Shown: one piece after another, positions 2,652 to 43,142 of the stretch
Position numbering within the stretch: position 1 is the stretch's first letter
How the letters are laid out: each line of letters begins with the position of its first letter
From: Candidatus Omnitrophica bacterium CG1_02_40_15
Lineage (GTDB): Bacteria > Omnitrophota > Gorgyraeia > Gorgyraeales > Gorgyraeaceae
Assembly (NCBI GenBank): GCA_001871815.1
Contig: MNVP01000075.1
Span: 1 to 43,142 of the forward strand
DNA length: 43,142 nucleotides
Direction of reading: 5' to 3'
Made by a program: the position numbers and the translations under genes
The notes under the pieces: generated by a model
The model's input: only the letters and a program-made list of their open reading frames with translations
What the model was told of the DNA's origin: nothing
The model's database searches: none

Positions 2652-2686
2652 TTAAAAGTTTAAGGTTTTAAGTTAAAGGTTAAAGA
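2652..2686. repeat. Family G heptamer array, copy G1 (single arm)
   Basis: Five tandem 7-mers TTAAAAG TTTAAGG TTTTAAG TTAAAGG TTAAAGA fill the rpmF-plsX gap exactly. TAA occurs in all three frames. Confidence 0.8.
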
Positions 2687-3689: not shown

Positions 3690-4666
3690 TGGAACAGGCT
3701 GGCATACTTGGATTAGGTTGTTATCTACCAGTCATGAAGCTGACAAATAAAGACATGGAGAAGATGGTCGATACATCAGATGAATGGATAATGACAAGGA
3801 CTGGGATCAAGGAAAGAAGGATTGCTCCAAAGGAATTTGCTGCGAGCGACCTTGGAGTGGAGGCTGCCAGAGCTGCCATTAAAGACTCAGGGTTAAAGCC
3901 TGAAGATATAGATTTGATTATTGTTGCTACAGTAACGGGCGATATGGCATTTCCATCTACCTCATGTATTATACAGGATAAGATAGGCGCTCGTAACTCA
4001 GCCGCATTTGATATAAATGCGGCGTGTTCAGGTTTTATATTCGGTATAATTACTGCGAAACAATTTGTTGATTCAGGGTTTTATAAAAATGTGCTGGTTA
4101 TAGGCGCAGAAAAGATGACCAATCTTGTTGACTGGCAAGATCGGTCTACGTGCGTATTGTTCGGAGACGGAGCAGGCGCATGCGTTGTAGGAAAGAGTAA
4201 AGATAGGCGGATTATCTCTTATTTTATAGGCTGCGATGGTTCAGGCAGTAATCTTTTAAGGCTTCCAGCAGGGGGCTCCAGGATTCCTACAACAGAAGAG
4301 ACTGTTAAGGCTAAGCTTCATTTTTTAAAAATGGAAGGCAACGAGGTATTTAAAATCGCGGTAAAGGTAATGGCAGATGCTGCGAATAAGGCAATTACAA
4401 AAGCAGGGCTTTTATGTAGCGACATAGATTTATTGATACCGCATCAGGCAAATATAAGGATATTAATGGCTGTTGCAAAAAAGATGGGCTTGCCGGAAGA
4501 AAAGATTTTTCTTAATATAGAAAAATACGGCAATATGTCATCGGCTTCAACAGCTGTTGCGCTGGCAGAGGCAGATAAAGAACATAAGATTAAAAAAGGC
4601 GATAATGTCGCGCTTGTTGCGTTTGGAGCAGGATTGACTTACGGGGCTGTTGTGATTAAGTGGTAA
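3686..4666 (+). CDS. fabH: 3-oxoacyl-ACP synthase III
   Basis: TSDEWIMTRTGIKERRIA, active-site AACSGF, HQANIRI, GNMSSAS. ATGA overlap with plsX. Confidence 0.9.
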   Translation: MMEQAGILGLGCYLPVMKLTNKDMEKMVDTSDEWIMTRTGIKERRIAPKEFAASDLGVEAARAAIKDSGLKPEDIDLIIVATVTGDMAFPSTSCIIQDKIGARNSAAFDINAACSGFIFGIITAKQFVDSGFYKNVLVIGAEKMTNLVDWQDRSTCVLFGDGAGACVVGKSKDRRIISYFIGCDGSGSNLLRLPAGGSRIPTTEETVKAKLHFLKMEGNEVFKIAVKVMADAANKAITKAGLLCSDIDLLIPHQANIRILMAVAKKMGLPEEKIFLNIEKYGNMSSASTAVALAEADKEHKIKKGDNVALVAFGAGLTYGAVVIKW

Positions 4667-5854: not shown

Positions 5855-6604
5855 ATGTGCGAATTAGTTTTAGAAGGCAAACTGGCTATTATAACAGGAG
5901 GGGCGAGAGGTATTGGCAAGGAGATAGCAATGCTCTTTGCAAAAGAAGGAGCTAATATTGCCATATGCGATGTAAATCTGGAAGAGGCTGAAAAAACAGC
6001 AAAAGAAATCCAGGATTTAGGCCGCGAAAGCCTTGCTTTTAAGGTTGACGTTACTGAACAAAGCCAAATACAGGGCATGGTGGATAAAATTCTTGACAAA
6101 TTCAATAAAATAGATATACTTATTAACAACGCTGGCATAACAAAAGACAATCTTCTTTTAAGGATGTCAGAAGAAGAGTGGGATAAGGTAATAGCGGTAA
6201 ACCTTAAAGGCACTTTTCTATGCACAAAGATAGTTTCAAAGGTTATGCTCAAGCAGCGTTTTGGCAAGATAGTTAATCTTGCGTCGATCATTGGGATAAT
6301 GGGCAATGCAGGCCAGGCAAATTACGCAGCTTCAAAGGCAGGCATAATAGGGCTTACAAAAAGCGTGGCAAAAGAGCTGGCTTCGCGTAATATATGCGTG
6401 AATGCAATAGCCCCTGGATTTATAAAGACAGATATGACAGCCAGATTGCCTGAGGAAGTTCAGAAAAAAATGCTTTCTGTGATACCTCTGGCAAGGTTTG
6501 GCGAAGCAAAGGATGTGGCGGATTTAGCTCTATTTCTTTCGAGCGGAAGCTCTTCATATATAACAGGCCAGGTGATACAGGTAGACGGTGGAATGGTGAT
6601 GTAA
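5855..6604 (+). CDS. fabG: 3-oxoacyl-ACP reductase
   Basis: TGGARGIGKEIA, NNAGIT, YAASKAGIIGLTKSVAKE, PGFIKTDM. Confidence 0.9.
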   Translation: MCELVLEGKLAIITGGARGIGKEIAMLFAKEGANIAICDVNLEEAEKTAKEIQDLGRESLAFKVDVTEQSQIQGMVDKILDKFNKIDILINNAGITKDNLLLRMSEEEWDKVIAVNLKGTFLCTKIVSKVMLKQRFGKIVNLASIIGIMGNAGQANYAASKAGIIGLTKSVAKELASRNICVNAIAPGFIKTDMTARLPEEVQKKMLSVIPLARFGEAKDVADLALFLSSGSSSYITGQVIQVDGGMVM

Positions 6605-6617
6605 AAATAAAAAGTTA

Positions 6618-6681
6618 GTTAAAAGTGAAAGGTGAAAAGTTAAAGATTTTTACCTTATACTTTAAACTTTACACCTTTAAC
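6618..6681. repeat. Family G heptamer hairpin, copy G2
   Basis: 5' arm GTTAAAA GTGAAAG GTGAAAA GTTAAAG, short loop, then a 3' arm of complementary 7-mers (..ACTTTAA ACTTTAC ACCTTTAAC). Imperfect pairing, about 21 of 28. Confidence 0.7.
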
Positions 6682-6709
6682 CAACATTTATACCAAGGAG
6701 GAATTAGAC

Positions 6710-8783: not shown

Positions 8784-11700
8784 ATGAAAAAGTTTATAAT
8801 TATAATTTTTATTATATGTTCTGTTGATTTATTCACCACAAATGCCATCTTTCCTTTAGTAGATGATGCAGAAAAAAATACAACACAGGATAATCTATTA
8901 AATCCTATAATAAGGCCGCCTGATAATGCTAATCCCAAACCTCCTGAATATGCCCCAGGCGAGTTGATTGTCAAGCTCAAGCAAGGCCAGACTCTGCAAG
9001 ACATAAAGGGCTTAAATACCAAATATAATGTGAATTCCGCAGAAAAAGTTTTCCAAGATACCTCTAATCCCAAAGACAGCCTTAAGCAGATGAAGGACAA
9101 ATTAGCCAGCTTAACTGCAGAACATCAAGGATGGTATTGGCAGTTAGATAAGGATTCCAAAGAATACAAAGATTATGTTGCCAAACTTGAGAAAGAAAAA
9201 CAAGGCCTTCAGGAACAAATAAAAGCCCAGGAAGAACTTATTGCTAAGTTAGAAGAGAGGCAGAAAAGAGCTCCTGAAGGAACTACTGCCCCAAATCTGG
9301 AAAATATTTATCTTTTAGATGCTGGCCAGGATGCAAATATACCTTTAATGGCTAAGGATTATGCTAATAATCCAGCAGTAGAATACGCTGAACCAAACTA
9401 TAAAGCAAAAGCCCAGATGGTTCCAAATGACCCGTATTATTCTTCAAATAATTCATGGGGACAGGGCTATGATGATTTATGGGGCCTGAAAAAGATTCAA
9501 TGTGAAAAAGCATGGGATATAAGTAAAGGCAAAGGAGTTATCGTAGCAGTAATAGATACTGGCATAGACTATAATCATGAAGATATTGCAGGTAATATTT
9601 GGATTAATCCAGGAGAAATCTCAGATAATAATATAGATGATGACAAGAATGGTTATATTGATGATGTGAGAGGCTATGATTTTTCCTACAATGACAATAA
9701 TCCTATGGATGGCCATGGCCATGGGACTCATGTAGCAGGCACAATTGCTGGTATAGGCAATAATTATAAAGGTATTGTTGGTATTGCGCCAGAGGCTAAG
9801 GTAATGGCAGTAAAAGGCCTGGGCGATGATGGAAGCGGCTGGGATTCGGATCTTGCAAAATGCCTTATCTATTCTACTAATAATGGCGCAGATGTAATTA
9901 ATAATTCATGGGAAGGACGAGGCCTGTCAAGAATGTTAGAAGAAGCAGTGGATTACGCTTATTCTAAAGGCTGTGTTGTGGTGGCAGCAGCAGGCAATTC
10001 CAATAGATATGCTGGAGATTATTCGCCAGCAGGTTTTTTCAATGTTATCAGCGTTTCTTCCAGCAGCCATAATGACCTAAAATCAGATTTTTCAAACTGG
10101 GGAAAGATAGATGTAGCTGGGCCTGGAGGAGATAGTGGAGCCACGGGCCATATAGGAAGGAATATACTTTCTTTACGCGCCAATGGCACAGATATGTATA
10201 GAGACGGCTTATGCATTGTAGCTGACAATTATTATCGCAGCCGAGGAACTTCTATGGCTTGCCCGCATGTGGTAGGGCTAGCTGCTTTAATAATATCTAA
10301 GCATCCTGAATTTAGCAATGAGGCTGTCAGGCAGGTTTTAAGATCCTCTGCAGATGACATTGGACAGGCAGGATGGGATAAAGATTCAGGTAACGGAAGA
10401 ATAAATGCTTACAGCGCGTTAAGCATGGATTCTTACTGTTCTGCCAGGATAACTTCGCCAAAGGAAAATGAATTTAAAAAAGGAGGAGTTATTCAGATAA
10501 AAGGCAGCGCCTATGGAACAAGCTTCCAGAGTTATAAACTGGAATATAAAAAAGCTAATGACAGTTGGGTTCAGGCAGGGCCTACTTCATATAACCCTAT
10601 AAAAGACAGTATATTGGGGAATGTAACTATACCTCCTTCTACTTTTTTTGGCACGTATTATTTATCTCTTACTGTTACTGATACAAAAGGCCGCAGATTC
10701 AGGGATGTGGTAAGTATTTTGGTTGAGGCAGACAAGGACTTGCATCCAGGATGGCCATTTATTATGGAGTCAGATGGTCAGTCTACATTAAAGTCTTCGC
10801 CATTAATTGTTGATATTGACAAGGATGGCAGGAAAGAACTTGTAATTAATGATACTTCTAATAAAATATATGTTTTAAATGAAGATGGAACTTATAAAAA
10901 AGGTTGGCCTGTTGTAATTTCTGACTCTCTTGAGAACATTGGTATTAGCAGTCCAGCAGCAGCTGATTTGGATAATGATGGAAATTTAGAAATAATAATA
11001 CATGGCCTTAGATATGTTTATATATTTAATAAAGATGGAATTCCTTTACGTGGATGGCCTATAAGAGTTCAGCCTGAATATCCAAGTTTTAGCGGTTTTT
11101 CGCAAATTCCTGCTCCTGTCATAGCAGATATAGATAAGGATAAAGAATTGGAAATAATAATAGCAGGGACTGATAGGACACTTCATGTTTTAAAAAAAGA
11201 CGGGACATATATTGCTGGTTGGCCAAAGACAGATTTAGCTAATTCTGGAGCTGGGATGAGTTTTACGCTTTCAGTTGGAGATATTGATAATGATGGGGAT
11301 ATGGAAATTGTGTATATAGATGGCCTTTGTTACGAGGGGATTAAAAGAATTTTTGTGTTTCATCATGACGGTAGAATTGCCAGTGGCTGGCCTAAGGAAC
11401 TTAATGAGTCTGTTGTTTGCTCTCCTGTTATGGGAGATATAGACGGAGATAATGATCTAGAGATTATAATAGGAAGCAGCGCGCTAGAAGCAGATTATAC
11501 AGGGACGCCCGTAGTATATGCATATCATCATAATGGCGAGATTGTGGCTGGCTGGCCTAAAAGACTGGACAATAAAGAGCAAATAGCAGGCATTTCTTTA
11601 GCTGATATTAATATGGATGGATATCCTGAGGTAATTGTTTCGGTAAATATAATAGATTTTACTAATCCGTTTTTTCCTTGGCCTCGCTATGGCGTTATTT

Positions 11701-14586: not shown

Positions 14587-14684
14587 TGTTCGAGCGGACA
14601 GGGTGACTAATTGACAAAGCCCAGTCGAGAACTTCTCGACTGAGCTTACATTTTATGCCAGCTATGTCCGCTCGAAGAATATTT
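14587..14684. repeat. Family B element, copy B3 (head-to-head dimer of half elements)
   Basis: TGTTCGAGCGGACA...GCCCAGTCGAGAAC | TTCTCGACTGAGC...ATGTCCGCTCGAAGAATATT. The left half is an inverted copy of the B 5' module. Confidence 0.8.
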
Positions 14685-15884
14685 ATGGCTAAATTTCTAT
14701 ATAAAGCAAAAACAGGGCCTGATAAAACCATAGAAGGAAATATTGAAGCAGATTCAGAGCAAATGGCTGCAAATAAATTAATGCAGTCAGGTTATTATCC
14801 TATATGGATCAAAAAAGAAACAGCTCAAGGTTCAGAGTTCAGGGTTCAAAGAATCAGGGCAAAAGAAATAGCCGCTTTTACAAGGCAGCTTTCGGAACTT
14901 TTAAATTCAGGTTTAGCGCTTTATAACTCATTAAATGTAATAGAGAATCAGACAGAAAATGCTCAGTTAAGATTAGTTATAAGGGGCATGAAGGATAGCA
15001 TAAAAGACGGGAACTCTTTTTCAGGTTCTTTAAAAAAATATCCAAATGTTTTTTCAGATGTGTATGTGAATCTTGTTAAGTCAGGCGAGGCAGGGAGCTT
15101 GCTCAATGAAGTGCTTGGGAATATAGCTGATTTTTTAGACAAAGAAGAAGATATGAAAGCCAAGATTATGGCAGCTTTATCTTATCCTATATTAATGGGC
15201 ATTGTAGGGGCCTTAACAATATTTATTTTAATAACATTTGTGGCGCCGAGATTAGTTAATATGCTTACTGATATGGGCCAAACCCTGCCATTAGCAACCA
15301 GGATTTTAATAGGCCTGAGCGATTTTATTAAGCGCTACTGGGTTTTGATAATTGTTTTTATAGGCGCCAGCGCGTTGCTGCTAAAAAGCGCTATGCAGCA
15401 GCCAGTTGTAAAAATGAATATAGACAGGTTAAAATTAAAACTTCCAGTTTTTGGAAACATGGTTAAACACGCAGAACTGGCAAGATTTACAAGAATGCTT
15501 TCAGCGCTTCTTAAGAACGGAGTGCCGATGTTAAGCTCTTTAAAAATAACATCCGGGATAATAGAAAATAGGATTATAAAAGAAGATTTGGATTTCATTC
15601 ATGATGATGTTAAGGCAGGTTCTACTTTAGCGCTGGCTATAAAGAAAAGAAAAAATTTTCCAATACTTATATCTAACATGACTGCGGTGGGCGAACAAGG
15701 CGGTTTTTTAGACAGGATGTTATTAAACATTGCTCATACATATGAAGTTGAGCTGGATAGGATTGTTAAAGTAATTACATCTCTTCTGGAACCTATTTTT
15801 ATTTTGGCAATCGGATTGGTGGTGGGTTTTATTGTTATTGCAATGCTTTTACCGATATTTCAGATATCGCTTACAGCGCATTAA
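14685..15884 (+). CDS. gspF: type II secretion platform protein (GspF/PilC family)
   Basis: MAKFLYKAKTGPDKTIEGNIEA N-terminus, two T2SSF repeats, three TM segments. Start set to ATG 14685 because ATG 14655 lies in repeat B3. Confidence 0.9.
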   Translation: MAKFLYKAKTGPDKTIEGNIEADSEQMAANKLMQSGYYPIWIKKETAQGSEFRVQRIRAKEIAAFTRQLSELLNSGLALYNSLNVIENQTENAQLRLVIRGMKDSIKDGNSFSGSLKKYPNVFSDVYVNLVKSGEAGSLLNEVLGNIADFLDKEEDMKAKIMAALSYPILMGIVGALTIFILITFVAPRLVNMLTDMGQTLPLATRILIGLSDFIKRYWVLIIVFIGASALLLKSAMQQPVVKMNIDRLKLKLPVFGNMVKHAELARFTRMLSALLKNGVPMLSSLKITSGIIENRIIKEDLDFIHDDVKAGSTLALAIKKRKNFPILISNMTAVGEQGGFLDRMLLNIAHTYEVELDRIVKVITSLLEPIFILAIGLVVGFIVIAMLLPIFQISLTAH

Positions 15885-15887
15885 TAT

Positions 15888-15979
15888 AGCTGTAAGCGAT
15901 AAGCCGTAAGTTTTAAGCTATAAACAAAAAATAAAATTTCAAGCTTTTCTTACAGCTTAAAGCTTATAACTTACAGCTT
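15888..15979. repeat. Family G heptamer hairpin, copy G3 (empty form)
   Basis: 5' arm GCTGTAA GCGATAA GCCGTAA GTTTTAA GCTATAA, an 18-nt A-rich loop, then 3' arm TTCTTAC AGCTTAA AGCTTAT AACTTAC AGCTTAA. The 3' arm is nearly identical to G4b. Confidence 0.8.
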
Positions 15980-27492: not shown

Positions 27493-28698
27493 ATGTCAAT
27501 CAAAGTCATCAATGAAAAATGCGTTGGTTGTAAATTATGCGTCAAGGCCTGCCCATTCAACGCAATAGAGCTTGTTAATAAAAAAGCAGTCATAGACCTT
27601 GATAAGTGCACATTATGCGGGGCGTGTATAGAATCCTGCAAGTTTGACGCTATCGTGATTGTAGGGGGCGGTCGCGACCGCCCCCTACACCAGAAATTTG
27701 ATGAATATAAAGATGTGTGGGTATTCTGCGAACAGAAAAAAGGCGTTGTGCAGAGTGTTGCATATGAACTTTTGGGCAAGGCTAGAGAGCTCGCGGATAC
27801 ACTTGGGAATGAATTATGCGGAGTTTTATTAGGCGAAGATATGAAAGAGGAAGCGCAGAAGATTATTCATAGAGGCGCTAACAAGGTATATCTTGTGGAT
27901 TCCCCTGCGTTAAAACATTATCAGGATGAGCCATATTCAAAGGTGTTAATTCAATTGATAAAGGAGTATAAGCCTGAAATAGTGCTTTGCGGAGCTTCTT
28001 CAATAGGCAGGTCATTGATATCGCGGGTTGCAATAGGCATTCATGCGGGCCTTACAGCAGATTGCACAGGCCTTGATATAGATAAAAAAGAAAGGCTCCT
28101 ATTGCAAACCAGGCCTGCATTCGGCGGAAATATTATGGCCACTATTATCTGCCCTAATCACAGGCCTCAGATGTCAACTGTAAGGCACAAGGTAATGAAA
28201 GAAGCTGCCGAAAATAAACATCATAAAGGAAAGATCATAGAAAAAAATTACGGCAGTAATATTTATTTTTCGAGAACAAGGCTTATTGATATTGTGGAAG
28301 AGATAGAAGAGACAGTCAATTTAACAGAGGCAAACGTGATTGTTTCCGGCGGAAGGGGCATGCAGTCCCCAGAGAATTTTAAACTTATTGAAGGCCTGGC
28401 AAAGGCTCTGGGCGGCGCTGTAGGAGCATCGCGCGCCGCAGTTGACAGCGGCTGGAAAACTTATTCGCACCAGGTTGGCCAGACAGGAAAAACAGTGTGC
28501 CCGAAGATTTACATAGCCTGCGGCATCTCCGGCCAGATCCAGCATCTTGTGGGCATGCAGTCTTCAAAGATAATAGTGGCGATAAATAAAGACCCTTACG
28601 CGCCCATATTCAGCGTGGCGACCTATGGGATAGTTGGGGATTTATTTGAAGTATTGCCTGAATTGACGAGAAGATTTAAAGAAATATTGAAAAAATAG
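27493..28698 (+). CDS. etfA: electron transfer flavoprotein alpha subunit with N-terminal 2x[4Fe-4S] ferredoxin domain
   Basis: CVGCKLCVKACP and CTLCGACIESCK motifs, then VSGGRGM, GASRAAVDSGW, QVGQTGKTVCPKIYIACGISGQIQH. Confidence 0.9.
   Translation: MSIKVINEKCVGCKLCVKACPFNAIELVNKKAVIDLDKCTLCGACIESCKFDAIVIVGGGRDRPLHQKFDEYKDVWVFCEQKKGVVQSVAYELLGKARELADTLGNELCGVLLGEDMKEEAQKIIHRGANKVYLVDSPALKHYQDEPYSKVLIQLIKEYKPEIVLCGASSIGRSLISRVAIGIHAGLTADCTGLDIDKKERLLLQTRPAFGGNIMATIICPNHRPQMSTVRHKVMKEAAENKHHKGKIIEKNYGSNIYFSRTRLIDIVEEIEETVNLTEANVIVSGGRGMQSPENFKLIEGLAKALGGAVGASRAAVDSGWKTYSHQVGQTGKTVCPKIYIACGISGQIQHLVGMQSSKIIVAINKDPYAPIFSVATYGIVGDLFEVLPELTRRFKEILKK
27661..27688. repeat. Family A-like perfect 28-nt palindrome, copy A6 (inside etfA, in frame)
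   Basis: GTAGGGGGCGGTCGCGACCGCCCCCTAC, translated as VGGGRDRPL, in the linker between the ferredoxin and Etf domains. Confidence 0.85.
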
Positions 28699-28728
28699 CT
28701 ATAAGTTTTAAGCTGTAAGTTATAAGCT
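28697..28728. repeat. Family G heptamer arm, copy G4a (5' arm flanking the four-helix-bundle gene)
   Basis: AGC TATAAGT TTTAAGC TGTAAGT TATAAGC T. Begins in the etfA stop codon. Confidence 0.8.
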
Positions 28729-28736
28729 AAAAAGAC

Positions 28737-29093
28737 ATGGCTTACACATTTAAGAATATAAAAGTTTGGGATAAAGCTCATAAGTTAGTTTTGGAAATAT
28801 ATAAAGCGACAAGAAATTTCCCAACGGAAGAAAAATATGGTTTGATAGCGCAACTTAGGAGATCGGCAGCTCCTATACCTACGAATATAGTAGAAGGTTA
28901 TAAAAGAAAAAGTGATAAAGATTTTTTACATTTTCTTAATATAGCCGATACATCTTTAGAAGAAACAAAATATCATTTACTTTTGAGTTACGATTTGAAT
29001 TATTTGAAAAAGAATGAATATGAAAGATTATTAGATTTAATGGACGAAGTTGGAAAGATGCTTTTTGGCTTCCAACAAAAGCTTAAAGCTTAA
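28737..29093 (+). CDS. four-helix-bundle protein (23S rRNA intervening-sequence protein / Avd-like family)
   Basis: KAHKLVLEIYKATRNFPTEEKYGLIAQLRRSAAPIPTNIVEGYKR...FLHFLNIADTSLEETKYHLLLS, recognised as the TIGR02436-type family. Confidence 0.8.
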   Translation: MAYTFKNIKVWDKAHKLVLEIYKATRNFPTEEKYGLIAQLRRSAAPIPTNIVEGYKRKSDKDFLHFLNIADTSLEETKYHLLLSYDLNYLKKNEYERLLDLMDEVGKMLFGFQQKLKA

Positions 29094-29111
29094 AGCTTAT
29101 AACTTAAAGCT
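29080..29111. repeat. Family G heptamer arm, copy G4b (3' arm)
   Basis: AGCTTAA AGCTTAA AGCTTAT AACTTAA AGCT. Complementary to G4a at 27 of 32 positions. Contains the stop of the four-helix-bundle gene and ends 7 nt before the smc ATG. Confidence 0.8.
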
Positions 29112-29118
29112 GAAAAAC

Positions 29119-32100
29119 ATGTATTTCAAATCCTTAGAATTATTCGGTTTCAAATCATTCGCTGATAAGACAAGGTTGGATTTTGAGCCTGGCATTACTG
29201 CTATTGTGGGGCCCAATGGCTGCGGAAAATCTAATATTGCCGACAGCATAAAGTGGGTACTCGGAGAACAATCTGCAAAGGTCTTGCGCGGCGGCAAAAT
29301 GGAAGACGTTATATTCAACGGCACTGACGGCAAGGAACCTGTGAGTTTCGCGGAAGTTTCCCTCACGCTTTCCAATCAGGATAGGGCGCTTGCAATAGAA
29401 TACGACGAAGTTACTGTCACCAGGCGCCTCTATCGCTCAGGAGAGAGCGAGTATCTTTTAAATAAAACTCCGGTCCGGCTTAAGGATATAAATGAGCTTT
29501 TCATGGGCACTGGCATAGGCACAAGCGCTTATTCTATTATTGAACAGGGCAAGATAGACCAGGTCTTGAGCTCGAAGCCAGAGGAAAGGCGTGAGGTCTT
29601 TGAAGAGGCGAGCGGCATTACAAAATACAAGGCAAAAAAGAAAGAGGCATTGCATAAACTGGAAGATACAGAACAAAATCTATTAAGGATAAATGATATC
29701 ATAGTAGAAGTAAAGCGCCAGATCAATTCAATAGAACGCCAGGCGAAGAAGGCAGAGCGCTATAAAGAGCGCTACGAAGAATTGAAGTCAATTGAATTGA
29801 AGCTCTCGAGAATAGACCTTGAGATATTGAGAAGCAAGAACTTGAATTCCGAAAGGGATACAAGCGAGTTAAATCAGAAAGAAGCAGAGCTTAATTTAGA
29901 ATTAAATAGCTTGTCCGAGGACCTGTCATTATTAAACAAGGATAGCTCCCATGTGGAAAATAAAAGAGTGAACCTGAAATCCAGAATAGTAGAACTTAAT
30001 TCTGAAATCTCAAAAGCCAGCAATAAGATATCTATGGATAAAGAAAGGGTGGACGAGCTTACAAAGCGCCGCTCAGGCCTTGAGGCTGAGATAAAAAAAA
30101 GCGAAGACATACTTATATCTCAAGAAAAGGAGATAGCTAATCTCAAGGAAAAGATATCTACGCTGGAAAAGGAAGATAGCGCGAGGTTCAGCAAGGTAAC
30201 AGAAAAAGAAAAAAGATTCGAAGAGATATCAAAGGCAATAAAAACAAGCGAAACAACATTGTCCAATTCGAAGGCAAATATCATAGATATTGCTTCAAGA
30301 CAGGCGAAGCTGAGAAACCAGGTGGCGAAGATATCCACTACTATTTCAACCCACGACTCAAGGCTCAAGAGGCTGGAATCAGAAAAATCAACTGTCTTAG
30401 AGGAAAAAAATAACCTGCAAGCTAAATTAAACGAAATCCTGGCAGAAATAACAGCAATTGAAAAAGAAGCAGCCAGCCTTAAACTAGAAAGAGATTCTGT
30501 ATCTGGTTCCGTATCAGCTATCCGAAGCCATATAAACTCGCTTACAGAAGAATCCAAAAAAATAGAGGCGCTCCTGGCGTCCAATAAATCCAAATTAGAA
30601 TTTTTGGAAGAGGCAAGGCTTAAATACGAAGGGTTTTCCGCAGGCGTAAAGGCAATACTTGGAAGCCAGTCAAGGATAGACGGCGTCAGGGATTGCCTTG
30701 CAAATCTGTTAACAGTCAAAAAAGGCTATGAGGCTGCAATAGAAACAGCAATGTCTGAGTATCTGCAAAGCATAGTAGTTGATACTATGGAATCTGTGGA
30801 TAATGCTATAGCATATCTTAAAGAACATTCATACGGCAAGGCCTCATTTATATATCCAGGGTATTTTAACGTAGGGACAGCACAATGTGCTGTCCCTACC
30901 GAGCAGATGGCGGTTTCCGAAGTCGAAAATTATAACGACAGCCGCATCCTTGGCAAGGCAGCTGATTTTGTAAATGCAGGAGATTCTTATAAAAATATCT
31001 TGAGGTATATATTGAAAGATGTTTTTATAGTAAATGACCTTAAGGACGCAAGGGCTCTTTTGGATAATACCAAGGGGCCTGCGAGGTGCAGGTTTATTAC
31101 TTTGTCAGGTGAGGCGGCCGAGAATGGGTTCATAACAGGCGGGAGCTCTAAAAAGGAAGAGCTTGGCCTGATAAATAGAGACGCCAGGATAAATGAGATC
31201 CGTCAAATGGTTAGTGAACTGGAAGGCCATTCGCGAAAACTTGAAGAAGAAAGGTTAGAGAAAGAAAAAGAAGAGAACGAATTGAAAACTAAATTTGAAG
31301 CGCTTACAAACGTAATTAACGAAAAAGATATACTATTTGCTAATGCCTCTACCAGCAGATCCAATATAGAAGAAAATATGAAAGGCCTGGGGGATGAGAT
31401 ATCGCTTGTGAACCTTGAGATAGATGAAGTGAATTCTGAAATCCTGATTCTGAAACAGGAAGAAGATGCTTCTCTTAAGACGCTGTTAGAGCTTGAGAAT
31501 GAAACCAAGATTAATGAAGAAAGGATACGCAGCAGCGAAGCCCTTATAACAGAATGCGCAAAAGAAAGAGAACAGCTTCTTGTAGAGATCGCGGAGGCAA
31601 GGACCGAGCTGGGGTCGCTCGAAAGCAAAAAGGAAGGCCTGTCGAGCACGTTGAATATACTGGAATCATCTTTGCGTGATGCCAGAAATAACGTAGAGTC
31701 CAGAAAGCTGGAAATAACGAGCTCTATTAAAAAGGGAGATGCGCTAATCGTAGAGATAAAAGAATTTGAAAAAAACATAACTGTCCTGTCGGAAGAAGGT
31801 TCCGGGAGGAATAAAGAATTGAGCGAGGTAGAGGCCGTATATTCCGAGATAACAGAAAAAACAGCGTCTTACGAAACTAAATCCAAAGAGATAGAAAACC
31901 AGATAAATAGTATAAGGTCAAAGATGCATTCTGTGGACTTACAGAAGGCGGAGGTGAATTACAGCATAGAAAACCTGACTCAACGCATAAGGGATGTTTA
32001 CAAAACTGAGCTTTTGGAATTCGAGCTGCCAGAGGATTGGCAGGTTTTAGATAAAGCTGCCCTGAAAAATAATGTAGAGGAAATGCGCAATCACTTGGAT

Positions 32101-32745
32101 TCAATGGGCGCGGTAAATCTGGTAGCTATAGATGAGAATAAAGAGCTTCAGGATAGGTTTATATTTTTGACAACCCAGAGAGATGACTTATTAAAGGCAA
32201 AAGACAGCCTGCTGGAGGCAATTAATAAAATAAATAAAACAACAAAAGAGCTCTTTATGGAGACATTCAAGAATATTCAAGTGGAATTCAGGAACTTCTT
32301 CAAAATGCTTTTCGGAGGAGGAGATGGGGAACTCATGCTCCTGGATGATGACAATGTGCTTGAGTGCGGGATTGAAATAGTCGCGAGGCCTCCCGGGAAA
32401 AGGCTTCAAAATGTTTCGCTTCTTTCAGGGGGAGAAAAAGCCCTTACCGCAGTAGCTCTTATATTCGCAATATTTAAAGTAAAGCCAAGCCCATTCTGTG
32501 TTCTGGATGAAATAGACGCGCCTCTTGACGAATCAAATGTTGACAGATTTTCAAGAAGCCTCGATATGTTTACAAATACATCTCAATTCATTGTTGTAAC
32601 CCACAATAAAAAGACCATTGATAAGGCTGATGTGATGTATGGCATTACCATGCAGCAGTCTGGCGTATCAAAGGTCGTCTCAGTCAAATTTTCAGATTCA
32701 AAGAAACAGGAAGCGGTTGAACAGCAAGTGGAGCCGAAGGTTTAA
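29119..32745 (+). CDS. smc: chromosome partition protein SMC
   Basis: MYFKSLELFGFKSFADKT, Walker A GPNGCGKSN, long coiled coils, hinge, LSGGEKALTAVALIFA, Walker B FCVLDEIDAPLD. Start ATG 29119. Carries in-frame palindrome A3 in the hinge region. Confidence 0.9.
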   Translation: MYFKSLELFGFKSFADKTRLDFEPGITAIVGPNGCGKSNIADSIKWVLGEQSAKVLRGGKMEDVIFNGTDGKEPVSFAEVSLTLSNQDRALAIEYDEVTVTRRLYRSGESEYLLNKTPVRLKDINELFMGTGIGTSAYSIIEQGKIDQVLSSKPEERREVFEEASGITKYKAKKKEALHKLEDTEQNLLRINDIIVEVKRQINSIERQAKKAERYKERYEELKSIELKLSRIDLEILRSKNLNSERDTSELNQKEAELNLELNSLSEDLSLLNKDSSHVENKRVNLKSRIVELNSEISKASNKISMDKERVDELTKRRSGLEAEIKKSEDILISQEKEIANLKEKISTLEKEDSARFSKVTEKEKRFEEISKAIKTSETTLSNSKANIIDIASRQAKLRNQVAKISTTISTHDSRLKRLESEKSTVLEEKNNLQAKLNEILAEITAIEKEAASLKLERDSVSGSVSAIRSHINSLTEESKKIEALLASNKSKLEFLEEARLKYEGFSAGVKAILGSQSRIDGVRDCLANLLTVKKGYEAAIETAMSEYLQSIVVDTMESVDNAIAYLKEHSYGKASFIYPGYFNVGTAQCAVPTEQMAVSEVENYNDSRILGKAADFVNAGDSYKNILRYILKDVFIVNDLKDARALLDNTKGPARCRFITLSGEAAENGFITGGSSKKEELGLINRDARINEIRQMVSELEGHSRKLEEERLEKEKEENELKTKFEALTNVINEKDILFANASTSRSNIEENMKGLGDEISLVNLEIDEVNSEILILKQEEDASLKTLLELENETKINEERIRSSEALITECAKEREQLLVEIAEARTELGSLESKKEGLSSTLNILESSLRDARNNVESRKLEITSSIKKGDALIVEIKEFEKNITVLSEEGSGRNKELSEVEAVYSEITEKTASYETKSKEIENQINSIRSKMHSVDLQKAEVNYSIENLTQRIRDVYKTELLEFELPEDWQVLDKAALKNNVEEMRNHLDSMGAVNLVAIDENKELQDRFIFLTTQRDDLLKAKDSLLEAINKINKTTKELFMETFKNIQVEFRNFFKMLFGGGDGELMLLDDDNVLECGIEIVARPPGKRLQNVSLLSGGEKALTAVALIFAIFKVKPSPFCVLDEIDAPLDESNVDRFSRSLDMFTNTSQFIVVTHNKKTIDKADVMYGITMQQSGVSKVVSVKFSDSKKQEAVEQQVEPKV
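30871..30899. repeat. Family A palindrome, copy A3 (inside smc, in frame)
   Basis: GTAGGGACAGCACAATGTGCTGTCCCTAC, translated as VGTAQCAVPT. GTA is codon 585 counted from ATG 29119. Confidence 0.9.
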
Positions 32746-33965: not shown

Positions 33966-33971
33966 ACATAT

Positions 33972-34088
33972 GATCTTCGGGAGAGGGTGAAATTCCCCAC
34001 CGGTAGTATAGTCTACGAGCTTTGCTATAGCAGGGCAGATCCGGTGTAATTCCGGAACCGATTGTGAAAGGCTAGATGGTAGAAGAGT
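33972..34088 (+). promoter_or_regulatory. FMN riboswitch (RFN element) aptamer
   Basis: TCTTCGGGAGAGGGTGAAATTCCCCACCGGTAGTATAGTCTACGAGC...CAGATCCGGTGTAATTCCGGAACCGATTGTGAAAGGCTAGATGGTAGAAGAG matches the conserved RFN cores and sits upstream of ribBA. Confidence 0.85.
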
Positions 34089-34113
34089 TTTTATATATTC
34101 TGCATATTTTCAT

Positions 34114-41940: not shown

Positions 41941-43142
41941 AGGAGGGTTTAAAACCCTTCTCTACAAAGGATTTGGTACGGGGCGTAGCGCAGTTGGCTA
42001 GCGCGCTTGCTTCGGGAGCAAGAGGTCGCTGGTTCGAATCCAGCCGCCCCGACCACATCGGATTTGACGCATTTTCTGAGGAAAAAGAGGGATTTTTAAA
42101 ATCTTTTTGGGCGAAAAATTCTTTATCGTAAGTGCTTATGTATTCGAGAGTTAAATCAAATGGCTTTTTGAAATCTAAAATCACTTTTTTATCCAGCAGG
42201 CGGCGGTTCGTTCCAATTTTTTCCATAAAAATTTTTATTTCATAAAAATTTTGCGACGAAGCAAGTTTTTCGGCGTGGTGAGCAGTTTTTATCCACTCCC
42301 GCAATGGTTCGATCCAAAGATTACCCTTTCGCCCAAAATCTGCCTTTTTCTGCATAAACTCTGCTTTAGACCTTACAATATCATCTTTCTTAGACAGGTA
42401 AATCTCTTTATCAATGTCGCCATCAAGAAAGGCATTCACTAACTTATCAAGCTTTGCGTCTATTTCTTTAATCTTTATTTGCAGATTTTGGGCGAAAGTT
42501 TGCGAAGACTGAGCAGTATCTTTTTCCCATATATCTACTTGAGCTAGCATCTTTTCTGTCCAGTCTTCGCAAAGGGCGACTTTTGAAATAGCTTGCTTTA
42601 ATTGAGCAATAACCAAGTCTTCTCTTAGATATCTCTGACTACAGGGGCCAAGCCGTTTAGTGCAGCGGTAGTATATATAAGTACCGCCATTTCCATGAGC
42701 ATACTGAGCAGTTATTGCTGCGCCACACTCGCCACATCTTAAAAGCCCAACGAATGGAAAGTTATGACCTTTTTTATTCTTTCTCGGCTTGGCCCTATCT
42801 TTCAGAACTCTCTGAACAGCTTCAAAAGTCGCTCGGGAAACTATCGGCTCGTATTTACCTTCATAAGCTTCGCCATGATAGTCTATCACGCCTATATAAG
42901 CTGAGTTAGTTAGAGTACCTTGAAGCGTAGATTTACAGATCTTCGTTCCATTCCTGCTCACCACGCCGAAAAAACTCAGACGCTCACCCAAACTCGCTAA
43001 AGTATGCTTTCCAGCGGCAAACTCTTCGAAAACTTTCTTTATTATTTTTGCTTTTACCGGGTCTGGTTCGATGTTTCTGGTCTTGGGGTTATTCACATAA
43101 CCAAGAGGAGCTAAACTAAGCCATTCACCGCGTCTGAGTTTT
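41792..43142 (-). CDS. large serine recombinase, C-terminal two thirds (catalytic domain beyond the window); 3' end reads through the tRNA
   Basis: Frame is open to the window edge (KLRRGEWLSLAPLGYVNNPKT... = start of the recombinase domain). Zinc ribbon LRCGECGAAITAQ...YYRCTKR and a coiled coil. There is no stop before the tRNA, and WSGRLDSNQRPLAPEASALANCATPR is the antisense translation of tRNA-Pro. Confidence 0.8.
   Translation of the reverse strand, partial: KLRRGEWLSLAPLGYVNNPKTRNIEPDPVKAKIIKKVFEEFAAGKHTLASLGERLSFFGVVSRNGTKICKSTLQGTLTNSAYIGVIDYHGEAYEGKYEPIVSRATFEAVQRVLKDRAKPRKNKKGHNFPFVGLLRCGECGAAITAQYAHGNGGTYIYYRCTKRLGPCSQRYLREDLVIAQLKQAISKVALCEDWTEKMLAQVDIWEKDTAQSSQTFAQNLQIKIKEIDAKLDKLVNAFLDGDIDKEIYLSKKDDIVRSKAEFMQKKADFGRKGNLWIEPLREWIKTAHHAEKLASSQNFYEIKIFMEKIGTNRRLLDKKVILDFKKPFDLTLEYISTYDKEFFAQKDFKNPSFSSENASNPMWSGRLDSNQRPLAPEASALANCATPRTKSFVEKGFKPSSILCSQFYFFLPANLPRAVYLRIYPNFLLPFHSLILYCRYESLLLRNPL
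41979..42055 (+). tRNA. tRNA-Pro (anticodon CGG), CCA encoded
   Basis: Acceptor CGGGGCG/CGCCCCG, D arm GCGC-AGTTGGCTA-GCGC, anticodon arm CTTGC-TTCGGGA-GCAAG, variable AGGTC, T arm GCTGG-TTCGAAT-CCAGC, discriminator A, CCA. Confidence 0.9.

Follow-up and report, generated by a model that had tools for sequence, protein, structure and literature searches.

The small gene lying between etfA and smc in Candidatus Omnitrophica bacterium CG1_02_40_15 raises the question of whether it is an ordinary member of its operon or was inserted there together with the two inverted runs of 7-base repeats that bracket it, and, if the latter, whether the arrangement is peculiar to this locus. To address this, the whole 43,142-nucleotide stretch of contig MNVP01000075.1 (assembly GCA_001871815.1, hereafter the window) was examined and compared with related loci. 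The gene (28737-29093, forward strand) encodes a 118-residue protein matching PF05635 23S_rRNA_IVP (E=3e-40; 137.1 bits against a cut-off of 33.8, covering residues 6-110) and TIGR02436 four helix bundle protein (E=2e-38; 130.9 bits against a cut-off of 24), with phmmer hits to the solved structures PDB 2gsc (XCC0516, E=1.8e-16) and 2rld (E=8e-8); no structure was predicted for the protein itself. The 5' arm, AGCTATAAGTTTTAAGCTGTAAGTTATAAGCT (28697-28728), consists of AGCT followed by four heptamers (A-TAAGTT, T-TAAGCT, G-TAAGTT, A-TAAGCT) and carries TAA stops in all three sense frames, and the 3' arm, AGCTTAAAGCTTAAAGCTTATAACTTAAAGCT (29080-29111), consists of four AGCTTA-type heptamers followed by AGCT, with the last 14 nt of the gene belonging to this arm. 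The arms are complementary at 27 of 32 positions (84%) with 351 nt between them, pairing as 6-bp blocks separated by 1x1 mismatches at every seventh position.

The unit fills the space between its neighbours almost exactly. The upstream gene etfA (27493-28698, forward strand) encodes a ferredoxin-domain electron-transfer flavoprotein alpha subunit (Pfam ETF, ETF_alpha and Fer4) with orthologues of 69-92% identity in Omnitrophota, and its TAG (28696-28698) overlaps the first two bases of the 5' arm. The 5' arm is followed by an 8-nt spacer, AAAAAGAC (28729-28736), before the start codon of the small gene, and the 3' arm is followed by a 7-nt spacer, GAAAAAC (29112-29118), before the ATG of smc (29119-32745, forward strand; Pfam SMC_N and SMC_hinge), neither spacer containing a Shine-Dalgarno-like motif. 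Relatives without the insert have AAGG or GGG in the position of the second spacer, and the first 33 residues of Smc are identical to those of relatives that lack the insert. Matches of many unrelated metagenome contigs start exactly at 28697 and end at 29111-29116, and the repeat may extend to 29116.

Three further heptamer elements were found in the window. An empty hairpin of the same TAAGCTn family (15888-15978, forward strand; -25.6 kcal/mol, z=-3.2) starts 3 nt after the stop of the open reading frame at 14655-15884 and ends about 20 nt before a pilin-like gene, and the 3' arm of the gene-bearing unit shares 24 of 25 bases with its positions 15954-15978. A second empty hairpin with a different core, GTTAAAG / CTTTAAC (6616-6682, forward strand; -18.4 kcal/mol), lies directly after the open reading frame at 5855-6604, and a solo, one-armed GTTTAAG/GTTAAAG array (2658-2685, forward strand) lies immediately upstream of the ATG at 2688. 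Tandem repeat detection with TRF returned period 7 with 4.7 and 5.4 copies, TAAGY heptamer triplets gave 11 matches against 0.11 expected, and general period-7 arrays numbered 5 in the window against 0.15 in shuffles, with lags of 5, 6, 8 and 9 giving only 1, 0, 1 and 0 arrays. In the minimum-energy fold of the 441-nt filled form the long-range stem is kept, also with z=-3.2.

The preliminary description, which had reported the gene in the loop of a heptamer-periodic hairpin that also exists empty, is confirmed in what it observed, although the minimum-energy fold of the empty hairpin has a 22-nt loop rather than 18 nt. However, most of the complementarity is a property of the inverted heptamer core. 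It had been proposed in advance that the idea would fail if the arms paired no better than arbitrary arrays of the same heptamer, and within this window that is the case, as the filled 5' arm scores 21 against the 3' arm of the empty hairpin and only 17 against its own. Across 32 loci, own arms nevertheless pair better than foreign same-core arms (18.0 versus 14.0, p=1e-5). Two other outcomes that had been named as counting against the idea, namely other family members lacking flanking arms and relatives showing a conserved etfA-IVP-smc order without repeats, were clearly not observed.

To determine whether the unit is an insertion, the etfA-smc junction was compared among Omnitrophota relatives. 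Seven relatives (numbered loci L225/226, L227, L228, L231/232 and L233), with etfA 81-91% identical, have etfA and smc 1-8 nt apart, four have the same arm-gene-arm unit (L234/235, L236 and L237/238, with a homologous 5' arm in L234, L236 and L237), and one has an empty heptamer hairpin at the junction. An allele without the gene also exists in a relative about 95% identical at the DNA level, in which position 28691 is joined to 29119. The lineages carrying the unit are interspersed with insert-free ones in the etfA tree, and they do not cluster on the DNA flanking the insertion, whereas clustering would suggest spread by homologous recombination; the nearest relative of the window, L230, has a different, G+C-rich hairpin at the junction instead. 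Against the orthologous units, dN/dS of the gene is 0.07-0.18 at dS 0.7-2 while the arm cores are invariant, and the orthologous stems show one compensatory C-G to T-A change.

The same layout surrounds most relatives of this gene across bacterial phyla. Among 80 metagenomic loci selected by protein, the same 4-mer recurs at least three times at spacing 7 upstream of the gene in 61/78, downstream in 61/76 and on both sides in 51/74, against a background of 0.03 per window, whereas spacings of 5, 6, 9 and 10 give about 0 and spacing 8 gives 5. Orientation is inverted in 40 loci and direct in 8. This sample was seeded with proteins first found through heptamer arrays, but an independent, protein-only sample of 14 plasmids from cultured organisms has arrays on at least one side in 14/14 and on both sides in 11/14, inverted in 9 and direct in two. 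In a published table, a GGGAATC x4 array abuts XCC0516, the family member solved as PDB 2gsc. Arms average 29 nt and 87% complementarity in 60 of 75 loci, with cores 96.5% Watson-Crick and variable positions 51-58%. The systematic seventh-position mismatch holds in the window and in L234, but L236 pairs at two of four such positions and about half are paired overall, so it was rejected as a rule. The median distance is 2.5 nt from the upstream stop codon to the 5' arm and 11.5 nt from the 3' arm to the next start codon, and the 3' arm begins inside the open reading frame in 79% of loci. The core sequence changes between lineages, clustering with the protein phylogeny, but the period stays 7 (rarely 8), with about four units per arm. 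Hairpins with the same arms but short loops are common, with at least 8 distinct loops, in addition to the copy in the window, and exact repeat boundaries seen in metagenome contigs. The 3' arm stops all three sense frames in 43 of 53 loci against 1.6 expected, but this follows automatically from the dominant GCTGA core and fails for cores such as CTCTGCC or CCCAGTT, and is recorded as an observation only.

The explanation considered somewhat more likely than not is that 28697-29111(-29116) is a discrete insertional cassette, in which a small PF05635 gene lies between two inverted arrays of about four heptamers, dropped precisely into the normally 1-8-nt etfA-smc junction. The analysis shows that the whole arm-gene-arm unit is present or absent as one piece among close relatives, that the architecture surrounds most members of the family across phyla, that the same arms occur as numerous empty hairpins with 4-40-nt loops, and that both the gene and the arm cores are under purifying selection. 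It is inferred beyond this that the arms are the cis-acting element of the cassette, pairing on RNA or on single-stranded DNA into an interrupted stem of 5-6-bp blocks that brings the two host flanks back together, such that the insertion would be tolerated inside operons, as an IVS is inside an rRNA helix, and the promoter-less gene, lacking a Shine-Dalgarno motif, would be expressed from host read-through. It is likewise inferred that the four-helix-bundle protein is the trans-acting partner of these hairpins, in binding, maintenance or spread, which is the relation that RAYT genes have to the REP/REPIN sequences that flank them.

Several findings weigh against this explanation. The enzyme that moves the unit is unknown and none is encoded, the protein having no recognised catalytic fold and no hit among PADLOC defence models. 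Inverted arms, as required of an IS element or MITE, are present, and TGAAAAA occurs on both sides of the unit (28688-28694 and 29111-29117), but this may be chance in A-rich sequence and the spacer is variable and A-rich in relatives, so the comparison does not settle whether a target-site duplication is present, and there is no transposase. The patchy distribution could also arise from one ancient gain followed by repeated precise losses, or from homologous recombination between relatives, rather than from transposition. About half of the variable positions are unpaired, which could potentially indicate that what is selected is the array as such, for example as a protein-binding site, rather than a stem; a minority of loci, moreover, have direct rather than inverted arrays.

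The interpretation offered in the preliminary description, that the gene travels with such hairpins or is expressed and processed through them as in the RNase III-excised intervening sequences of 23S rRNA, is supported in part, namely for travel with the hairpins and for insertion, whereas processing as an RNase III / IVS-type stem is not shown. Taken as a full alternative, in which the arms pair in the polycistronic transcript, RNase III releases the small mRNA and the heptamer periodicity is incidental, it is considered unlikely. In its favour, the family takes its name from IVS-borne members according to the Pfam description, the stem is kept in the predicted fold, and the gene is co-oriented with its upstream neighbour in 53/64 loci and with its downstream neighbour in 49/63. 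Scans of 28400-29400 returned promoter-like sites at background level only and no terminator-like site, including no G+C-rich short hairpin followed by a T-run. In the orthologous stems, the two departures at core positions are both T.G, a wobble on the sense strand, alongside the compensatory pair. However, non-Watson-Crick departures in the wider sample show no excess of sense-strand G.U over A.C (48 versus 54 overall, 7 versus 8 at conserved positions), a test that was uninformative as to strand-specific structure. No RNA sequencing run was found to contain the window sequence, and excision by RNase III was not assayed here. A blastn search with E. coli 16S and 23S rRNA found no rRNA gene around any of about 100 family members in 238 loci, and an Rfam search at gathering thresholds found only an FMN riboswitch and one tRNA in the window and nothing at either hairpin. 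Nor does this alternative explain why the period is 7 in every phylum, or why solo and one-armed arrays exist.

More doubtful still is the possibility that the hairpins are generic host intergenic elements, such as STRR-like repeats, mRNA 3'-end stabilisers, attenuators or polymerase-slippage products, in or next to which small four-helix-bundle genes simply tend to land without functional partnership. Solo hairpins and one-armed arrays do far outnumber filled ones, with three of four elements in this window being empty, 114 of 120 TAAG-array loci holding no IVP gene and Xanthomonas campestris having 186 arrays. Other hairpin types also occupy the etfA-smc junction in L229 and L230, and published work treats such arrays without reference to any protein. 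Against this, about 80% of protein-selected family members carry arrays on each side, the heptamer type tracks the protein phylogeny, the 3' arm is fused to the last codons in 79% of loci, and at the etfA-smc junction the TAAGCTn arms are never seen without the gene, the unit being gained or lost as a whole. Chance flanking by two low-complexity AT-rich stretches is refuted, despite a G+C content of 39% and common TAAG-like words, by the excess of heptamer matches and period-7 arrays and by recurrence of the layout in more than 100 independent loci.

In architecture the unit is closest to REPIN-RAYT systems and to IVS elements. ORF-bearing intervening sequences of 23S rRNA, e.g. in Leptospira and Coxiella (Ralph & McClelland 1993), involve the same protein family, with the ORF in the loop of a long stem formed by flanking inverted repeats, the element interrupting a transcribed host unit and the stem re-joining the flanks; here the host is a protein-coding operon, not an rRNA helix. 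Whether true IVS stems are heptamer-periodic was not examined. As with REP/REPIN elements and their RAYT (TnpA-REP) genes (Nunvar 2010; Bertels & Rainey 2011), a gene is flanked by inverted copies of a short, hairpin-forming extragenic repeat that is dispersed as many gene-less hairpins and whose type co-varies with the gene lineage, but the protein is a four-helix bundle with no HUH/Y1 (IS200/IS605-like) transposase motifs, its only Pfam hits being PF05635 and PF22296, the arms are tandem heptamer arrays rather than a single imperfect palindrome, and the genes are often multi-copy. The Avd accessory protein of diversity-generating retroelements (PF22296, E=4e-11; bAvd, PDB 4DWL) is a homologous four-helix bundle acting on structured nucleic acid encoded right next to its own gene, and the solved homologues 2gsc and 2rld each have five chains, as does the pentameric bAvd. 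The NCBIfam DivGenRetAVD score (NF033474) is, however, 48.6 bits, below the cut-off of 80, and the neighbours are acyl-CoA dehydrogenase, etfB, etfA and smc, with no reverse transcriptase and no template/variable repeat nearby. MITEs and integron gene cassettes are likewise short units without a transposase, bounded by inverted or hairpin-forming sequence, promoter-less, co-oriented with their neighbours and conserved in structure rather than in sequence (as attC sites are), but no integrase or attI is present here, the arms lie on both sides of the ORF rather than as a single 3' attC, and no target-site duplication was shown.

Bacterial heptamer repeats have themselves been catalogued since 1990 without an accepted function or origin, including cyanobacterial STRR (Mazel 1990), GGGAATC arrays of Xanthomonas and GGGGA(C/T)T of Nostoc (PMC4692102), and TAACTGA arrays of Beggiatoaceae, Microcystis and Bacteroidetes (PMC4679880). 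These share with the present arrays their intergenic tandem heptamers with 4-5 conserved and 2 variable positions, a modal length of four units, frequent convergent (inverted) pairs and placement close behind the upstream ORF. Those papers interpret the arrays as G-quadruplexes, translational regulators or slippage products and do not mention the four-helix-bundle family (the terms 's23', 'intervening' and 'four helix' do not occur), and literature searches on the family and on heptamer repeats found no paper linking the two. A speculative and improbable extension is that PF05635 proteins are the missing trans-acting partners of these repeats generally, i.e. of STRR in cyanobacteria, GGGAATC in Xanthomonas, and the TAAGCTn and TCAGCnn arrays seen here in many phyla. 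In this view, pentameric bundles, each lineage tuned to its own heptamer, would recognise arrays of about 4-5 units and drive their spread, maintenance or function, as a REPIN-RAYT-like partnership built on a non-transposase fold; the partnership could sit harmlessly in operons, cas loci, RNase P RNA or rRNA because the inverted arms re-join the interrupted host sequence. No census of paralogues and arrays across complete genomes was carried out.

PF05635 is one of the commonest uncharacterised small protein families in bacteria, multi-copy in Cyanobacteria, Bacteroidota, Xanthomonas, Omnitrophota and CPR, with a known role only for its diversity-generating retroelement branch (Avd). If the gene and the repeats form one system, the questions surrounding both become directly testable through binding assays, knock-outs and genome-wide co-variation. 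A reported statistical association of this family with CRISPR-Cas loci may also need re-reading, as it may simply reflect cassette insertions between cas genes. Further, the arrays overlap stop and start codons of neighbouring genes and mislead gene callers: in Xanthomonas an array is listed as overlapping the XCC0516 start codon, and in the present window smc was called from upstream starts inside the cassette.

The arms at 28697-28728 and 29080-29111 are complementary at 27 of 32 positions, Tandem Repeats Finder calls period 7 in both, and the enclosed ORF 28737-29093 encodes a full-length PF05635 / TIGR02436 four-helix-bundle protein with the solved homologues 2gsc and 2rld. The unit begins in the TAG of a ferredoxin-domain etfA (27493-28698) and ends 7 nt before the smc ATG at 29119, and its 3′ arm is 24/25 identical to the 3′ arm of the hairpin at 15888-15978, which folds at -25.6 kcal/mol (z=-3.2). 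The sequence is as reported in the preliminary description, and that observation is confirmed. The 441-nt filled form keeps the long-range stem in its minimum-energy fold, as 6-bp blocks separated by 1x1 mismatches at every seventh position (z=-3.2). Chance is excluded as an explanation, since TAAGY triplets occur 11 times against 0.11 expected and period-7 arrays occur 5 times against 0.15. The window holds four such elements: a solo array (2658-2685), an empty hairpin with another core (6616-6682), the empty TAAGCTn hairpin at 15888-15978, and the filled one. The first two share a GTTAAAG/CTTTAAC-type core, the hairpin lying directly after ORF 5855-6604 and the one-armed array ending 2 nt before the ATG at 2688.

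The source is a groundwater Omnitrophota population, whose etfA is 91% identical to that of ‘Omnitrophica bacterium GWA2_41_15’, and all twelve contigs carrying the gene are identical across the region. To determine whether the unit is an insertion, a comparison that had been proposed beforehand as a check, the etfA-smc junction was examined in related loci (designated by L numbers, with etfA identity to the window in parentheses). The two genes are 1-8 nt apart, often with an AAGG/GGG ribosome-binding motif, in L225/226 (91%), L227 (88%), L228 (86%), L231/232 (89%) and L233 (81%). In L230 (91%), the window's closest relative, the junction is occupied at 4207-4254 by an unrelated, G+C-rich perfect palindrome (GTAGGGGACGGTTTGAAACCGTCCCCTAC, -26.6 kcal/mol), and in L229 (81%) by an AT-rich, heptamer-like empty hairpin similar in type to the GTTAAAG/CTTTAAC elements of the window. 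The site seems to attract hairpin-type insertions of several kinds. A homologous arm-gene-arm unit, encoding a protein 73-84% identical, is present in L234/235, L236 and L237/238; in L236 and L237 the 5′ arm reaches into the last codons of etfA and supplies its stop codon. In L234 and L237, but not in the window, smc additionally carries an intein with a LAGLIDADG homing-endonuclease domain near its N-terminal ATPase head (1761 aa against about 1200 aa). A contig from a relative about 95% identical at the DNA level joins 28691 directly to 29119 through GAGATAAT. Comparison with relatives also places the true start of smc at the ATG at 29119 (MYFKSLELFGFKSF...), whereas the ORF listing and public gene calls (window 29050 and position 8816 of locus L001) start it at upstream TTG or other codons inside the cassette.

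In an etfA tree, bearers and non-bearers of the unit are interspersed, and the window's sister, L230, is a non-bearer even when only the last 100 residues next to the junction are used. The unit is an insertion, and has therefore been gained or lost as a whole several times, although these data do not distinguish between transposition, precise loss and recombination between relatives. 

Whether other members of the protein family are flanked by comparable arms, which had likewise been set out in advance as a test for the paralogues in the genome, was examined in three samples, and the layout is a property of the protein family. In the first, which was selected by arrays, a scan of one genome per species for four TAAGY heptamers returned 120 loci from many phyla, of which six held a PF05635 gene; in five or six of those the array abuts the gene, with different heptamers but inverted arms. 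In the second, comprising 80 metagenomic loci selected by protein similarity only, the same 4-mer recurs at least three times at spacing 7 within about 110 nt upstream in 61/78 loci, downstream in 61/76, and on both sides in 51/74, against a background of 0.03 per window. Spacings 5, 6, 9 and 10 give essentially nothing, and spacing 8 occurs in five loci; L168, L172, L179, L183 and L200 represent a clade of the family in which the flanking arrays have period 8 instead of 7 (for example GTCAGCnn), while periods 6 and 9 were essentially never seen. The two sides are inverted in 40 loci and direct in 8, although several of the ‘direct’ cases have an additional complete hairpin upstream. Arms average 29 nt at 87% complementarity, the modal arm has four units, and core positions are 96.5% Watson-Crick while the two variable positions are 51-58%, against 43-45% for arms of different loci. 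The third sample consisted of 14 plasmid loci from cultured Cyanobacteria, Gemmatirosa and Azospirillum, chosen only by tblastn at 27-49% identity, in which arrays are present on at least one side in all 14 and on both sides in 11, inverted in 9. An exception to the inverted rule is L241, a Pseudanabaena galeata plasmid locus with very long direct arrays on both sides of the gene (AAAGCTA about 16 times upstream and AAAGCCA about 10 times downstream). The cores seen are TAAGC, TCAGC, TTAGC, TGAGC, TCGGC, GTCAGGA, GGAGATA, CTCTGCC, GGGAATT, CCCAGTT, TGGTCAC and GGTGACA, and while the sequence varies, the period stays 7 outside the loci with spacing 8, and the core type clusters with the protein phylogeny.

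Across 62 loci, the 5′ arm starts a median of 2.5 nt from the stop codon of a co-oriented upstream ORF, with 75% within 10 nt and many overlapping it, and ends a median of 29 nt before the start of the gene. The 3′ arm begins inside the last codons of the gene in 79% of loci and ends a median of 11.5 nt before the first start codon of the downstream ORF. Neighbours are co-oriented in about 80% of cases. The arrays also place stop codons in all three frames, the 3′ arm doing so on the sense strand in 43/53 loci and the 5′ arm on the antisense strand in 42/53, against about 1.7 expected; in the window and in L236/L237 the 5′ arm supplies or overlaps the etfA stop codon. Other loci include an orthologous series of metagenome loci upstream of a GMC-type oxidoreductase (L140, L142, L145, L146 and L189), in which a complete short hairpin (TCAGC array + GCTGA array) precedes the gene, a TATAAT box lies 7-8 nt before the ATG, suggesting a leaderless transcript, and a further GCTGA array follows the gene, so that alternative pairings are possible. 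In L155, L194 and L199 the upstream flank repeats the C-terminal codons and 3′ arm of another copy, and these look like tandem or partially duplicated cassettes. At L087:6085-6590, nested heptamer arms (GTAAGTA outside, GGTAATT inside) enclose about 400 nt with no recognisable ORF, which may be a decayed cassette or a different cargo.

In the four orthologous etfA-smc cassettes, the gene evolves at dN/dS 0.07-0.18, with synonymous divergence of 0.7-2. Every core pair of the stem is nevertheless conserved, with one compensatory C-G to T-A change and two T.G wobbles, whereas the seventh positions vary freely and are unpaired in 13 of 16 cells. The arm cores are therefore under selection.

Besides the two empty hairpins in the window, the TAAG scan shows short-loop hairpins in many organisms. 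Alignment of contigs from related groundwater runs to the region revealed at least eight distinct contigs with the same two arms separated by only 5-40 nt, and many matches that start exactly at 28697 or end at 29111-29116, with a depth over the arms 4-20 times that of the gene interior. The arms are thus a dispersed repeat with boundaries exactly where the preliminary description placed them.

The interpretation offered there, that the gene travels with, or is expressed and processed through, such hairpins, is supported in part: that the gene travels with hairpins is supported and generalised, whereas RNase III processing was not tested here and stands as an analogy. Complementarity of the arms is driven mostly by the inverted cores. 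When arm pairing was compared with that between arrays of the same heptamer, a criterion stated at the outset, the filled 5′ arm of the window scored 21 against the 3′ arm of the empty hairpin and 17 against its own, although across 32 TCAGC-type loci own arms still beat foreign ones (18.0 vs 14.0, p=1.3e-5). There was no evidence that the sense RNA in particular is the folded species, as G.U-type and A.C-type departures are equal (48 vs 54 overall, and 7 vs 8 at conserved phases). There are no transcript data, no Rfam match was returned for the unit, scans gave no promoter or terminator signal, and none of about 100 sampled family members lies in an rRNA gene. 

While the insertion, the family-wide layout, the empty forms and the selection on the arm cores rest on direct sequence comparison, the mechanism proposed here is inferred. 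In this view, the arms are the cis element of a cassette which, by pairing, place the upstream stop codon and the downstream start codon back within about 15 nt of each other, the distance at which etfA and smc sit in insert-free relatives. A ribosome terminating at etfA would have to melt the outer part of the stem, freeing both the SD-less start of the small gene, 38 nt downstream, and the SD-less smc start next to the other strand. This would explain why the unit is tolerated inside operons, including cas operons, why it abuts stop and start codons, and why the same family is found in rRNA helices. The periodic arms can pair in several registers, so gains or losses of single units would not destroy the stem. 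The protein family is homologous to Avd, which acts on structured nucleic acid next to its own gene, and its solved members each have five chains; it is suggested to be the partner that recognises arrays of about four or five heptamers. The closest known architecture is a RAYT gene flanked by REP/REPIN sequences, although the fold is different and no catalytic activity is known.

Heptamer arrays have been described piecemeal, for example GGGAATC in Xanthomonas and GGGGA(C/T)T in Nostoc (PMC4692102), and TAACTGA in Beggiatoaceae, Microcystis and Bacteroidetes (PMC4679880). The STRR of cyanobacteria are a further example. The Xanthomonas arrays have a modal length of four units, include 70-75 convergent pairs, and sit close behind the upstream ORF. 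Neither paper mentions this protein family, yet supplementary table row 15 of PMC4692102 places a four-unit GGGAATC array on XCC0516, the protein of PDB 2gsc. Literature searches combining the family names with repeats found nothing else and, as far as the literature searched shows, the association is undescribed. The instance in the window is one member of a widespread, apparently unrecognised cassette class.

Four-helix-bundle cassettes also sit between cas10 and cmr3, and twice between cas6 and cas4, in L224 (a Picosynechococcus PCC 7003 plasmid), L241 (Pseudanabaena) and L243 (Anabaena sp. 90), which may account for the published statistical association of ‘23S rRNA IVP’ with CRISPR loci without any functional link. 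Elsewhere in the window, an FMN riboswitch (33969-34091, 94.8 bits) lies upstream of the riboflavin operon (ribBA, ribH, nusB, ribD), and a tRNA is located at 41979-42052.
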